Source: Cupriavidus necator (GTDB taxonomy: Bacteria > Pseudomonadota > Gammaproteobacteria > Burkholderiales > Burkholderiaceae). Taken from it: DNA of 32,000 nt. A program made the position numbers and the translations under genes. Where the stretch lies: NCBI RefSeq assembly GCF_016127575.1, contig NZ_CP066019.1, positions 1,800,001 through 1,832,000 on the forward strand, written 5' to 3'. The notes under the pieces were generated by a model, which worked only from the letters and a program-made list of their open reading frames with translations, was not told where the DNA came from and searched no databases. Of this stretch, positions 19,680 to 31,627 are shown piece by piece. Position 1 is the stretch's first letter, and each line of letters opens with the position of its first letter.

Positions 19680-21358
19680 GCGGCGGCCTGATGGTCGGTC
19701 TGGCCGGCCGCGGCGGGGGCGGCGGCGCTGTCGGTGGCGCTGTCGGCGCGGATCACGCCGCTGTCGGCGCCGATCACGCGGTCGGCCACGTGGAAATAGC
19801 GGTCGTCATGGCTGACCGCGACAATGGTCTTGCCGCTGCGCTTGAGCTCCGGCAGCAGCGATTCATAGAAATAGGCGCGGAACACGGGATCCTGGTCGGC
19901 TGCCCATTCGTCGAGCAGCAGCACCGGGCGCGCCTCGACATAAGCCGCCAGCAGCGCCAGCCGCTTGCGTTGCCCCTGCGACAGCTGCGTGGTCGACAGC
20001 AGGTCATCGCGGATGGCGACCTTGTGGTCCATGTGCAGCCGCTTCAGGAAAGCATTGGCCACCGCGGCGTCGAAGCGCCCGTCCGGGCCGACCAGCCGCG
20101 CGAACAGATGGGCGTTGGAGAACACCGTGGCGAAATGGCTGCGATACCAGGGCAGCTCGGCGGTGCCCACCGGCCGGTCGCCGAGCGCTATGCTGCCGGC
20201 GCTCGGCTGGTACAGGCCCGCCAGCAGCTTCATCAGCGTGGACTTGCCGCTGCCGTTGCCGCCGACGATAAAGACCGTCTCGCCGGCGGACAGCGTCAGC
20301 GACACGGGGCCGAGGCGGAAGCCGCGCTCGTCGCCCTGGCCGGGATAGTCGTAGCGCACGTCCTGCAGCGTGATCAGCGGCGTGCCCGGCGCGGGCGGTG
20401 CAGCGGCGGTATTGGTCGAATGCAGCGCGAAATCCTCCGTGTACGGCGCCAGCCGCAGCGTCTCGATCTTGCGCAGCGCGACGTTGCCGGTCATCAGGAT
20501 CGGCAGCGTGCCGACCAGGTCGTTCAGCGGCATGCGCAGGAACATCAGCACCAGCACGAAGGCGGTGATGCGCTCGCGCCCAATACCCAGCGCATCGCCG
20601 GCGATAAAGATCGCGCACGCCACCCCCAGGATCAGCGTCGCGGTGAACGACAGGCTCAGCACCCAGTAGCGGTCGGCGCGCACCTCATGTGCGCGCGCAA
20701 ACTCCGCGGCGGGCTCGAAGTCGCGCTGGTAGAAGCTCTGCTTGCGCCAGGCATTGAGCGCCAGTTCGTAGCGGCCATCAATCGCGCCCTGGTAGCCGGC
20801 GTAGAGCCGGTCGTCGGTATCGCGCACCGCCTTCATCAGGGTGCGCATGCGCAGCACCCAGCGCTGCGCCAGCAGCACGCCTGCGCCCAGCACCGCGGCA
20901 CCGAGCACGAACAGCTGCCACGACAGCCAGCCCAGGTACAGCAGCCCGCCCAGCACCAGCACGCCGTTGTAGAACACGAACGGCACGCGGTTGAAGGCCA
21001 TGCCGATCGAGGCGATGTCCTTGGTCAGCGTGGCATAGACGGTCGGGCCGCCGATCGCTTCCAGGCGCTCCACGTCGGTATCGAGCACGCGCTTGAGCAT
21101 GCGCAGCCGCATGTCGTACACCACGCGGTGGCCCAGCGCGGTCAGCAGCGCCTGCGAGCCGAAGCCGCAGCCGAACAGCACCGCCAGCAGGCCCAGCAGC
21201 ACGCCGATGCGCCCCGCTTCCAGCGCCGCCGGCGCGGCGATCATGCGGTTGATCTCGGCAATCAGCGCGATGCCGGCGAGCGCGCTGCAGGTGCCCGCGG
21301 CCAGCGCCAACAGCAGGAGGCCGCCGAAGCGGCGGCGCAATGAGAGGAACAGATTCAC
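19676..21358 (-). CDS. Fused TMD-NBD ABC transporter of the cyclic-peptide/siderophore exporter type (PvdE/SyrD-like)
   Basis: Six N-terminal helices, Walker A GGNGSGKST, signature LSQGQRKRL, Walker B LLLDEWAADQD. The GTG start at 21358 overlaps the NRPS stop (GTGA). Confidence 0.85.
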   Translation of the reverse strand: MNLFLSLRRRFGGLLLLALAAGTCSALAGIALIAEINRMIAAPAALEAGRIGVLLGLLAVLFGCGFGSQALLTALGHRVVYDMRLRMLKRVLDTDVERLEAIGGPTVYATLTKDIASIGMAFNRVPFVFYNGVLVLGGLLYLGWLSWQLFVLGAAVLGAGVLLAQRWVLRMRTLMKAVRDTDDRLYAGYQGAIDGRYELALNAWRKQSFYQRDFEPAAEFARAHEVRADRYWVLSLSFTATLILGVACAIFIAGDALGIGRERITAFVLVLMFLRMPLNDLVGTLPILMTGNVALRKIETLRLAPYTEDFALHSTNTAAAPPAPGTPLITLQDVRYDYPGQGDERGFRLGPVSLTLSAGETVFIVGGNGSGKSTLMKLLAGLYQPSAGSIALGDRPVGTAELPWYRSHFATVFSNAHLFARLVGPDGRFDAAVANAFLKRLHMDHKVAIRDDLLSTTQLSQGQRKRLALLAAYVEARPVLLLDEWAADQDPVFRAYFYESLLPELKRSGKTIVAVSHDDRYFHVADRVIGADSGVIRADSATDSAAAPAAAGQTDHQAAA

Positions 21359-31600: not shown

Positions 31601-31627
31601 GTGCGCGGTATTCAGTGCATCTGACAT
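25601..31627 (-). CDS. NRPS with domain order C-A-T-E-C
   Basis: C1: LSYAQQRLWFL and HHIVADGAS. A domain: YVIYTSGSTGKPKGV, NGYGPTETVV, GELYLGGEGLARGY, YRTGDLVR, PNGKLDRRAL. T domain: FFSLGGDSIL (Ser codon 28478-28480). E domain: CHHLVVDGVSWRIV and FNYLGQFD. Terminal C: IEDIWRPTPMQRGM and WHHLLLDGWS. ATG 31627 is preferred over the overlapping 31696. Confidence 0.95.
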   Translation of the reverse strand: MSDALNTAHAQVAARFARLAPAQRTAFLAALHDKGVAFSTLPIVPAPRSEALPLSYAQQRLWFLQQLDPAGTAYHMPGAYRLEGALDAAALRRAFDRIGARHEVLRTTYPTDAAGVARQQVHDSLPPPFVEMEADPAGLDTTIDGIAHAPFDLAAGPLWRVALIRESVRSHVLVVVLHHIVADGASIVRLVAELAACYAAEAAGTPAELPQLPVQYADFAAWQRNWMDAGEAERQLGYWRERLGDAPGAALDLPADRPRRAARTGAGAEHTFVIPADVAAALRTLAGAHQATLNMALLAAYAVLLNRYTGQADICIGVPVANRQRSETEALVGCFVNMQVMRAEVAPDEPFAELLPRLARQAAADQEHQALPFDLLVEALQPGRSLAQPALFNVTFDHRAAGAAAVPQLKGLRVTSLELPVTTARFELSLATTELPDGSLFGRIAYAADLFDAATVARMAGHYGRLLQAFATDPATTSAAAVLLGDAERDALARWSEPGCAAPPFVPVHVQVAGQARRVPEAPAVLFGDATLSYGELNRQANRLAHRLVAQGIGAESRVGVALGRSPRMIVALLAVLKAGGCFVPFDTTYPARRLLDMQEDAAPQLLLTERALRESFPVAEGLPVLLVDDDADVSWPEHDAEIAVHPAQLAYVIYTSGSTGKPKGVAVAHGPLAMHVVTTAECYDITATSRELHFLSFSFDGAHERWMVPLASGASIVLRDDTLWSVEQTYAALRRHAVTHAGFPPRYLHQLAAWAESQGDPPPLWLYSFGGEAMPRAGVARLTQALRPQHIINGYGPTETVVTPLVWKARAADAEAQVTGAYAPIGRPVGARSAYVLDSRLEPVPVGVPGELYLGGEGLARGYLGRAGMTADRFIPDPFGAPGGRLYRTGDLVRWQPDGCIEYLGRQDHQVKIRGFRIELGEIEARLLAQPGVRQVVVLPHETSAGTRLVGYVVAQQGAVSCEALRAALAAALPDYMVPAAILQLDSLPVTPNGKLDRRALPEPQWQAETAYAAPVSAAERMLAAVWADVLGIAQVGLHDNFFSLGGDSILSLQIVARARLQGWRLTPRQVFEHQTVAALARVAERVGGTAQDAANDDAGAAPLTPVQAAFLGQPLAEASRNRFNQSVLLRPQSAIDAPALQAALQDVTGHHAALRYRFTRTDQGWRQQAVAEAGAAVALTTIDVPDATAITAACDAEQDRLDIARSPLLRALHLRVADGSERLFLVCHHLVVDGVSWRIVLEDLQAAYAARLAGQVPALAPVGASYAAWSRTLAGPARDMFAPEAEYWRTVTRDQMSLPCDGPGGEPARPRTASFALDAATTDALLRRAHAAYRTGVNDLLLTGFARALCAFAGRDDIRIHMEGHGREAEAAGSALDLSRTVGWFTSVWPVRLASVADVGDTIAGVKEALRAVPRQGLGYGVLSALAPAALPPCAPQVLFNYLGQFDGSLGEGSWQAAAEDTGRGVSDDIPLPAPLAFDGRIQGGRLQFRCTYSGAQFREATIEALMARIAQSLREVVGHCVAQAVTRLTPSDVPASALSQQQLDALALRADEIEDIWRPTPMQRGMIRHGARHPGSPAYTVQVQATMDGLDVERMVAAWQDAVRRHPVLRARVAWLQAGAGMEAEPLLVVPTQATLPVRHHDWRERSHRPAAAVDDAQWQALCEAEFREGFDLGQAPLMRLTLVRIGDHSWRFLWTWHHLLLDGWSMSRLLGEVLRGYDGEQPAQPAVSLRRYVAWQQAQLGADPEQRWRERLAPLARQPVRITCEVAPARRGQQIRAVEHVVQADALRTLAAFASRQHVTVNTLVQAAWMLALRQATGARTVGMAVVGSGRSAELPGIEDIMGLLASTLPLVQALPDSLRVADWLPALQADNLALREIEHAPPAWLQSWAAGSDDAARTPFDTMLIYENYPVDSTLRETQRGVLRFSDVDNRGQMSYPVTAIVIPRETLTLRVEYDTAALDDSAAEELTRQCVAILLALPALAGATLGEVPVRVEHGSASALAA
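25604..26974 (-). other. C-terminal condensation domain (DCL-like) ending the protein (approximate bounds)
   Basis: HHLLLDG is encoded at 26507-26527. The N-terminal IEDIWRPTPMQRGMI resembles C domains that follow E domains. No A or T domain follows before the TAG at 25601-25603. Confidence 0.8.
27017..28324 (-). other. Epimerization domain of the C-A-T-E-C NRPS (approximate bounds)
   Basis: HHLVVDG is encoded at 27920-27940. The preceding carrier domain has the GGDSI signature typical of T domains that feed E domains. Confidence 0.8.

Follow-up and report, generated by a model that had tools for sequence, protein, structure and literature searches.

A terminal condensation domain behind an epimerization domain in the cupriachelin synthetase of Cupriavidus necator H16: a candidate D-selective release domain

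The stretch of DNA analysed here (the window: 32,000 nucleotides of Cupriavidus necator contig NZ_CP066019.1, positions 1,800,001 to 1,832,000 of the forward strand) has a G+C content of ~70%, and third-position GC singles out one clear gene set, in which two large open reading frames (ORFs) for nonribosomal peptide synthetases (NRPSs) are both high-GC3 frames. The larger encodes a protein of 2008 aa plus stop with the domain order condensation (C), adenylation (A), thiolation (T), epimerization (E) and again C; the smaller encodes a C-A-T protein of 1075 aa (Table 1). The 2008-aa protein has an exact match in AM260480.1, chromosome 2 of C. necator (Ralstonia eutropha) H16, at 1890165-1916191. 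Cupriachelin and its gene cluster were published from this locus of H16 (Kreutzer, Kage and Nett, JACS 2012, as cited in PMC10484230), and the region is the 3′ half of that already known cupriachelin (cuc) assembly line. Our subject is the C domain that ends the 2008-aa protein, which may release the finished D-configured chain by hydrolysis.

Three stretches of the large protein match Pfam Condensation (E=2.8e-209), alongside AMP-binding (5.3e-74), AMP-binding_C and PP-binding (8.2e-15). The middle Condensation stretch is an E domain, with phmmer matches to the solved E domains of PvdL (2.6e-92), TycA (9e-59) and GrsA (1.8e-54). Directly downstream of this intact E domain, the last 460 residues hold a C domain with the motif WHHLLLDGWS, and 13 aa follow it to the protein end. 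There is no A-T acceptor module after this terminal C domain: the next gene is fhuF on the opposite strand, and the product lacks a sixth residue. The small protein (Condensation 5.7e-83, AMP-binding 1.7e-86, PP-binding 5.6e-13) has an intact C domain of its own (MHHIVSDGWS) and ends 58 aa after its carrier Ser, residue 1017 of 1075; Pfam detects neither a thioesterase (TE) nor a reductase (R) domain in it.

Two further NRPS genes lie directly upstream, beyond the window (locus L001), and the assembly line comprises five modules on four proteins, none of which contains a cis TE or R domain. The first NRPS, of 3094 aa (L001:1-6875), reads ...A-T-T-C-A-T-C-TauD in the part retrieved from H16; its full domain order is starter C (seen in the relative L007), A(Asp), T, T, C, A for diaminobutyrate (Dab), T, C and TauD. 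The two tandem T domains of module 1 in H16 correspond to a single one in the Azospirillum ortholog described below. Module 3 is the 1031-aa protein (L001:6868-9963), composed of a degenerate C-like domain, A(Asp) and T. In its 435-aa C-like domain (L001:6868-8172) SPLAADRG replaces HHxxxDG, and Pfam Condensation reaches only 46 bits. This motif-less domain directly follows the fused C-TauD end of the preceding protein and is retained in Cupriavidus, Nitrococcus (L013) and Azospirillum.

The layout of the upstream flank was read in relatives, namely L007 (~95% DNA identity to H16), L008-L012 (other Cupriavidus) and L088 (a Logan contig, ~95% identical to L007), and is presumably the same in H16. 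In these relatives a stand-alone TauD hydroxylase gene directly precedes the first NRPS gene, and the cluster has two hydroxylases, one fused and one stand-alone. A divergent operon encodes MbtH, a TE of 272 aa, a phosphopantetheinyl transferase (PPTase) and a diaminobutyrate aminotransferase; genes for an acyl-CoA ligase, an acyl-CoA dehydrogenase, an enoyl-CoA hydratase and a short-chain dehydrogenase/reductase come next. The stand-alone TE (Pfam PF00975, 2.9e-36), encoded between the MbtH and PPTase genes in L007-L012 and L088, has relatives that carry the name 'thioesterase II family'.

The A domains were aligned to the GrsA PheA segment in order to read their Stachelhaus codes; the numbering of the segment reproduces D235, T278, I299, A301, A322, I330, C331, D413 and K517. 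The codes point to Dab for the second A domain of the 3094-aa protein (DIWELTADDK), Asp for the 1031-aa protein (DLTKIGHIGK), Gly for the C-A-T protein (DILQLGVVWK) and a hydroxyornithine (hOrn)-type residue, N5-acyl-N5-hydroxy-ornithine, for the C-A-T-E-C protein (DGEGYGGVTK). The last assignment follows from the likeness to the MbaB code for N5-formyl-N5-hydroxy-ornithine, DGEYTGGITK, and from Glu239, the signature of oxidised-ornithine domains (PMC4786211). The composition of cupriachelin (Asp, Dab, Asp, Gly, hOrn) is accounted for by these specificities, the codes from H16 covering four modules and the first Asp module being seen only in orthologs.

The order of the residues is fixed by published tandem mass spectrometry (MS/MS) of the C8 congener, with b1-b4 at 258.1336, 358.1973, 489.2191 and 546.2406 and y1-y4 at 235.1288, 292.1503, 423.1722 and 523.2358 (PMC10484230 supplement). 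By our own formula arithmetic on these ions, b4 is C22H36N5O11+ and holds the acyl chain, β-hydroxyaspartate (βOHAsp), Dab, βOHAsp and Gly; y1 is C9H19N2O5+, intact N5-(3-hydroxybutyryl)-N5-hydroxy-ornithine with a free carboxyl. The product is thus acyl-βOHAsp-Dab-βOHAsp-Gly-D-hOrn(3-hydroxybutyryl)-OH, a linear free acid. Its ornithine was found to be D by Marfey analysis (PMC10484230), and the genomic logic, with an intact E domain and a D-donor-type C domain on the hOrn module, supports this assignment.

Taken together, the A-domain codes and the published MS/MS order imply that the Gly module acts fourth and the C-A-T-E-C protein fifth and last; gene order is not module order in the cupriachelin synthetase, and the C-A-T protein serves as a normal elongation module within the line, with an LCL-type C domain. 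Peptidyl-βOHAsp on the 1031-aa protein would be taken over by the C domain of the C-A-T protein, where Gly would be added. Next, the C-A-T-E-C protein would take over: its N-terminal C domain would join peptidyl-Gly to N5-acyl-N5-hydroxy-ornithine. This protein would be the termination module, its E domain epimerising the C-terminal residue. Since the Gly module acts before the large protein, the two C domains that seem to stand in tandem on the map never follow one another in the chemistry. Five canonical C domains match the five condensations: the starter C domain, the two internal C domains of the first NRPS, that of the Gly module and the N-terminal one of the last protein. This leaves two domains of the C superfamily unaccounted for: the terminal C domain and the motif-less one in the second Asp module.

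The subtypes of the C domains were assigned by matches to solved structures and by comparison within the cluster. One in-cluster group consists of the terminal C domain and the second C domain of the 3094-aa protein, which are 36% identical and start with IEDxYPLSPxQxGxLxH, the type of GrsB, TycB and SrfA-B. The other group, starting with PLSxAQQRLW, unites the third C domain of the 3094-aa protein, the N-terminal C domain of the C-A-T-E-C protein and the Gly-module C domain. The C domain after module 1, the closest in-cluster paralog of the terminal one, is likewise DCL-like, yet module 1 has no E domain and the first βOHAsp is reported to be L. Among solved structures, three domains that follow E domains match the terminal C domain better than the Gly-module C domain: McyB-C1 (5e-56 as against 4.6e-30) and the DCL domains TycB1 (1e-36 as against 1e-12) and SrfA-C (6e-28 as against 3e-14). 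The Gly-module C domain is closest to the LCL domains TycC6 (1e-57, as against 2e-13 for the terminal C domain) and FscG-C3 (2e-47; absent from the matches of the terminal C domain). Moreover, a single PvdL chain is matched by the E domain at residues 98-547 and, immediately after it, by the terminal C domain at 548-988. Judged by these sequence comparisons, the terminal C domain is of DCL type and the Gly-module C domain of LCL type. The latter suits an L-βOHAsp donor and not a D-hOrn donor, which is an independent argument against a collinear order.

An earlier note on this DNA had described the large NRPS as ending in an intact C domain without a downstream A-T, and the C-A-T protein as having its own intact C domain and stopping 58 aa after the carrier Ser without TE, R or terminal C domain; motifs and Pfam confirm both descriptions, with 2008 aa plus stop as the length of the former. 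Its view that a strictly collinear reading fails is upheld by the published b4 and y1 ions and by the LCL type of the Gly-module C domain, and the classification of C domains that it had proposed as a check gives, through the structure matches, DCL for the terminal domain and LCL for the Gly module. The fhuF gene does lie between the two NRPS genes on the opposite strand, but it is divergent only from the small one and convergent with the large one. The C-A-T protein does act earlier than the C-A-T-E-C protein, though as internal module 4 for Gly and not as the initiation or acylation module that had been envisaged. The note had missed the PP-binding domain of another NRPS at the right edge of the window, and the two NRPS genes upstream.

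A C domain of D-donor type, placed after the last T and E domains, without an acceptor and in a system whose product is a free acid with a D last residue, has release onto water as its simplest catalytic role. The terminal DCL-type domain, lacking an acceptor module, would use water in place of the aminoacyl acceptor and free the D-configured lipopeptide as an acid. Release in this manner would also meet the need of an E domain for a D-selective step after it, and the Cupriavidus type II TE would act mainly as a proofreader. On the sequence evidence, we see a roughly even chance that the terminal C domain releases the D-configured chain by hydrolysis.

A precedent is offered by crocacin, whose release by hydrolysis is ascribed to a C-like domain (Muller et al. 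2014, as cited in PMC5640695). Like the terminal C domain of cupriachelin, CroK-C2 occupies the position of a TE at the very end of its assembly line, and crocacin too is set free as an acid (as presented in PMC5640695); the terminal C domain shares the positional marks of this type, standing after the last T domain, with no cis TE or R domain and a free-acid product. The likeness is one of description: CroK-C2 belongs to a myxobacterial polyketide synthase-NRPS and is not preceded by an E domain, and hydrolysis was demonstrated there, whereas for cupriachelin we infer it. The closest solved relatives of the domain are the E-C didomain of PvdL (PDB 9lcp, 9up2; E 2.6e-92, C 2.6e-56), McyB-C1, TycB1 and SrfA-C. 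In all of these an A-T acceptor follows and a peptide bond is formed, whereas the cupriachelin domain ends its protein and is altered in motifs C5 to C7. Fungal CT domains are likewise terminal releasing domains of the C superfamily (PMC10510592); they macrocyclise and carry an SHxxxD motif, whereas cupriachelin is linear and its terminal C domain has HHxxxDG instead.

C-A-T-E-C proteins with an intact HHxxxDGWS motif recur in L086, L085 and Azospirillum oryzae. In L086 (protein P0145) the terminal C domain is 65-67% identical and the order NRPS, opposite-strand fhuF, NRPS is the same. The protein from L085, a metagenome scaffold (P0225; 2016 aa, code DGEGSGGISK, WHHALLDGWS), has an Asp module before it and unrelated genes after it. 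The whole five-module system is borne by plasmid NZ_CP054618.1 of A. oryzae KACC 14407 (L089/L091/L092), where it extends from about 424 kb over the origin to 30.2 kb. One arm encodes a PepSY-TM protein, a TonB receptor (across the plasmid origin), an ornithine N5-oxygenase, a GNAT protein, an ABC exporter, C-A(Gly, DILQVGVVWK)-T, a Dab transaminase and MbtH; the divergent arm encodes TauD, a 2924-aa NRPS (Asp, Dab, C-TauD), a 983-aa protein (no His motif; Asp) and a 1969-aa C-A(DGEGSGGVTK)-T-E-C protein (WHHALLDGWS). This layout shows that the placement of the Gly module in the exporter operon is common to an alpha- and a betaproteobacterium. No TE was found in ~50 kb of the A. oryzae cluster, in which no annotation gap is big enough for one and tblastn gave no match even at E<=10. 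The cluster spans the origin of a mobilizable 426-kb plasmid and is followed by two toxin-antitoxin pairs, a setting that suggests horizontal spread of the pathway between Alpha- and Betaproteobacteria. To our knowledge, no product has been reported for it. A megablast search of the region against plasmids returned only short A-domain matches. Matches to the terminal C domain on plasmids of Methylomagnum, Methylosinus and Azotobacter (38-40%), and a further one on an Azotobacter chromosome, came either from E-C-A junctions inside proteins or from an assembly with a frameshift, and were set aside as uninformative on terminal domains.

A domain-by-domain comparison of H16 with A. oryzae gives 46% identity for the terminal C domain, as against 43% for the N-terminal C domain of the same protein, 44% for the E domain, 50% for the Gly-module C domain, 52% and 56% for the two internal C domains of the first NRPS, and 28% for the motif-less domain of the second Asp module. 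HHxxxDGWS is kept in all four sequences of the terminal clade (H16, L086, L085 and A. oryzae, hence Beta- and Alphaproteobacteria). The same four sequences depart together from internal DCL domains in three other motifs: in C5, F-x-N-T-L-P becomes L-[AVI]-[SAG]-[TV]-L-P with loss of the Asn; in C6, EHxPLxxIQ becomes EHAPP; and in C7, LFD becomes PFD. Motifs C5 to C7 would lie on the acceptor side, and we read their changes in that light. With its His motif kept, constraint like that of its catalytic neighbours and consistent changes elsewhere, the terminal C domain looks like an enzyme with an altered second substrate and not like a relic.

Several considerations weigh against hydrolytic release by this domain. 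Hydrolytic C domains are rare; a thioesterase II gene lies next to MbtH in all Cupriavidus cluster versions examined and could be the release catalyst; Azospirillum may draw on a TE gene elsewhere in its genome; and the changes in C5 to C7 could mean that acceptor binding was lost without hydrolysis being gained. The main rival is that the cluster's type II TE of 272 aa releases the chain in trans, the terminal C domain being idle in release and serving, for example, only as a D-selective docking platform. TE-less siderophore NRPSs with a separate releasing hydrolase, such as CchJ of coelichelin, are indeed known, none of the four NRPS proteins has a cis TE or reductase domain, and the TE keeps its position in L007-L012 and L088. 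However, its relatives in the thioesterase II family are known mostly for editing, the A. oryzae cluster retains the terminal C domain with no TE in ~50 kb, and the domain has kept its catalytic motif and diverged about as little as the active C and E domains, unlike the motif-less C-like domain; we regard release in trans as rather unlikely, and count the absence of a TE from the A. oryzae cluster in favour of release by the terminal C domain. That the domain might be a remnant of a lost sixth module, or a structural element without a chemical role, would agree with the missing acceptor module and with the departure of C5 to C7 from internal DCL domains. This seems improbable in view of the intact HHxxxDGWS in four orthologs and an identity of 46%, equal to that of the catalytic domains, as against 28% for the motif-less one. 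The fuller proposal, which sequence comparison makes conceivable and to which we would grant slightly less than an even chance, is that the terminal C domain represents a distinct DCL-derived, D-stereoselective hydrolase paired with a terminal E domain, so that no chain but the epimerised one is let go, that the TE is dispensable, as the A. oryzae ortholog would show, and that such E-C cassettes have been kept across lipopeptide siderophore clusters of the β-hydroxyaspartate/hydroxamate kind in Alpha- and Betaproteobacteria.

For the motif-less surplus domain a role of another kind is likely. Reitz et al. reportedly described, in PNAS in 2019, an 'interface' domain in β-hydroxyaspartate siderophore NRPSs, and profiles for such domains are included in antiSMASH 8. 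The motif-less domain of the second Asp module is most likely this interface domain, an extra C-superfamily domain of the same cluster family that explains an apparently surplus C domain. Were the terminal C domain itself an interface domain recruiting the stand-alone Asp β-hydroxylase, the presence of two hydroxylases but just one obviously degenerate C-like domain would find an explanation, as would the fact that its nearest in-cluster paralog is the C domain following the first Asp module (36%). Yet its motif is canonical, it closely resembles catalytic DCL domains, it follows the hOrn T-E domains at a distance from both Asp modules, and the non-canonical domain of the system is the N-terminus of the 1031-aa Asp module; we consider such a role very improbable. 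Transfer of the chain to a soluble amine has its model in MbaB and OrbJ, the malleobactin and ornibactin synthetases, which likewise build siderophores in Burkholderiales: their last module takes up an hOrn derivative and has a C domain, but no TE, at its end (PMC4786211). Those enzymes and VibH cap the chain with putrescine or norspermidine, whereas cupriachelin ends in a free carboxylate (y1 235.1288) and its composition includes no extra amine. There are no polyamine genes in the cluster, where the aminotransferase supplies Dab. The MbaB-type terminal C domain examined, that of Burkholderia sp. SFA1, is LCL-like (HHIVSDGTS) and directly follows T, in contrast to the DCL-type domain after E in cupriachelin; it is not the nearest relative, the best match there being an internal C domain of the larger NRPS. 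That MbaB-like protein, on plasmid p1 (L090, 15225-20180), ends C-A-T-C and then has ~100 aa resembling a degenerate T domain, with GATS for GGxS. The free acid excludes amine capture, and strict collinearity is refuted as well: the terminal C domain joining the D-hOrn chain to Gly on the C-A-T protein, whose own C domain would idle, agrees with gene order and with DCL after E as the normal elongation arrangement, but it predicts ...βOHAsp-hOrn-Gly, whereas b4 546.2406 and y1 235.1288 require ...Gly-hOrn-OH. The residue order published from NMR likewise contradicts it.

The release schemes of the earlier note can be judged accordingly. In its first model the terminal C domain handed the chain to a soluble amine; the domain does remain the most plausible release catalyst, but capture by an amine is inconsistent with the free carboxylic acid (y1 235.1288). 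The second model, cyclisation through the hydroxy-ornithine side chain, fails as well, the residue being N5-acylated and the product linear; a linear free acid excludes both. The statement that no release mechanism is left had been made without the flank, where close relatives encode a type II TE and MbtH upstream. The search of the flanks that the note had suggested thus brought to light the TE and MbtH in relatives, and no polyamine genes in the cluster. A TE acting in trans, which the note had named as speaking against its models, is present in the Cupriavidus relatives, yet it is not conserved in the Azospirillum ortholog.

Table 1. Genes and domains of the cupriachelin region; positions are those of the window
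Feature	Position	Strand	Basis or remark
PepSY-TM protein	12710..14524	-	also adjoins receptor in Azospirillum ortholog
TonB-dependent siderophore receptor	14732..17014	-	gene map
L-ornithine N5-monooxygenase	17120..18520	-	Pfam Lys_Orn_oxgnase 6.7e-117
IucB-type (Acetyltransf_8) N5-hydroxyornithine acyltransferase	18543..19643	-	family match; pandorabactin analogy
Fused ABC exporter	19676..21358	-	start overlaps stop of C-A-T gene
1075-aa NRPS C-A-T, module 4 (Gly)	21355..24582	-	Pfam, A-domain code
fhuF-like ferric-siderophore reductase gene	24833..25588	+	Pfam FhuF 7.7e-16, FhuF_C 3.6e-06; same synteny in L086
2008-aa NRPS C-A-T-E-C, fifth and last module, N5-acyl-N5-hydroxy-ornithine	25601..31627	-	Pfam, exact AM260480.1 match, A-domain code
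Terminal DCL-type C domain (WHHLLLDGWS)	25643..26962	-	about aa 1556-1995; candidate hydrolytic D-selective release domain
E domain, motifs intact (HHLVVDGVSW, FNYLGQ)	27008..28330	-	about aa 1100-1540; structure matches
T domain (GGDS)	28379..28558	-	Pfam, motif
A domain (AMP-binding plus AMP-binding_C)	28640..30085	-	Pfam, code DGEGYGGVTK
N-terminal C domain, LCL-like (LHHIVADGAS)	30152..31480	-	motif and C-domain grouping
C-terminal T domain (PP-binding) of upstream 1031-aa NRPS, module 3	31665..32000	-	Pfam PP-binding 3.5e-16; gene runs off window edge

As regards the neighbouring genes, the stop codons of the large NRPS gene and fhuF are only 12 bp apart (25588-25601), and no terminator-like hairpin was detected between them. 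In the 250-bp divergent promoter region of fhuF and the C-A-T gene, GATAATCATTCTCATT at 24762..24777 resembles a Fur box by consensus and overlaps a minus-strand sigma-70-like promoter (TTGAAA, 18 nt spacer, TATATT; 24745-24782). With this putative control region, the Gly module would head an iron-regulated operon of its own, together with exporter, acyltransferase, monooxygenase and receptor. In pandorabactin, N5-(3-hydroxybutyryl)-N5-hydroxy-ornithine is linked to 3-(R)-hydroxybutyryl-CoA (PMC12144892), and by this analogy the IucB-type acyltransferase is probably the 3-hydroxybutyryl transferase. Addition of the 3-hydroxybutyryl group by the terminal C domain was considered and rejected, this acyltransferase being encoded in the operon. 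Just past the PepSY gene are a TetR regulator and a 346-aa α/β-hydrolase (9996-11909). The hydrolase (10869-11909) was dismissed as a CchJ-like release esterase, for it lies beyond the operon end by the TetR gene, and the surroundings of the Azospirillum cluster hold no homolog of it. Genes for homogentisate 1,2-dioxygenase (7555-8874, minus strand) and fumarylacetoacetase (both within 6155-8874) have no connection with the siderophore cluster. As drawn, the longest ORF for fumarylacetoacetase (6155-8113) reaches too far, into the dioxygenase gene, and its true start must be near 7500. At the left end (309-4846) an MMPL-family transporter, a polysaccharide deacetylase and a β-ketoacyl synthase of ketosynthase type are encoded; nothing was seen to connect these genes with cupriachelin, and the flanks of the Azospirillum cluster lack them. 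Elsewhere, free-standing C-TauD didomains (~800-870 aa, P0012-P0102) that keep HHxxxDGWS intact occur widely among cyanobacteria, Acidobacteria and Gammaproteobacteria. Stand-alone and fused didomains of this kind indicate that the condensing domain travels with the hydroxylase, which backs the reading of the motif-less domain as an interface domain, and their sequences suggest that Asp modules split in this way are common.

The cupriachelin gene cluster and its product have been known since 2012 and are no discovery of ours. What the present analysis contributes is first of all a genomic counterpart to the 2023 reassignment of ornithine to D over the original L, which the E domain and the D-donor-type C domain of the hOrn module back. 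Should the terminal C domain prove to be a D-selective hydrolase, the very few hydrolytic C domains on record would gain a bacterial member, and genome-mining tools would have a rule to call E-C termination modules as such rather than as incomplete clusters. The E-C termination cassette, kept without a TE in Azospirillum, appears to be a reasonable but modest target for enzymology.

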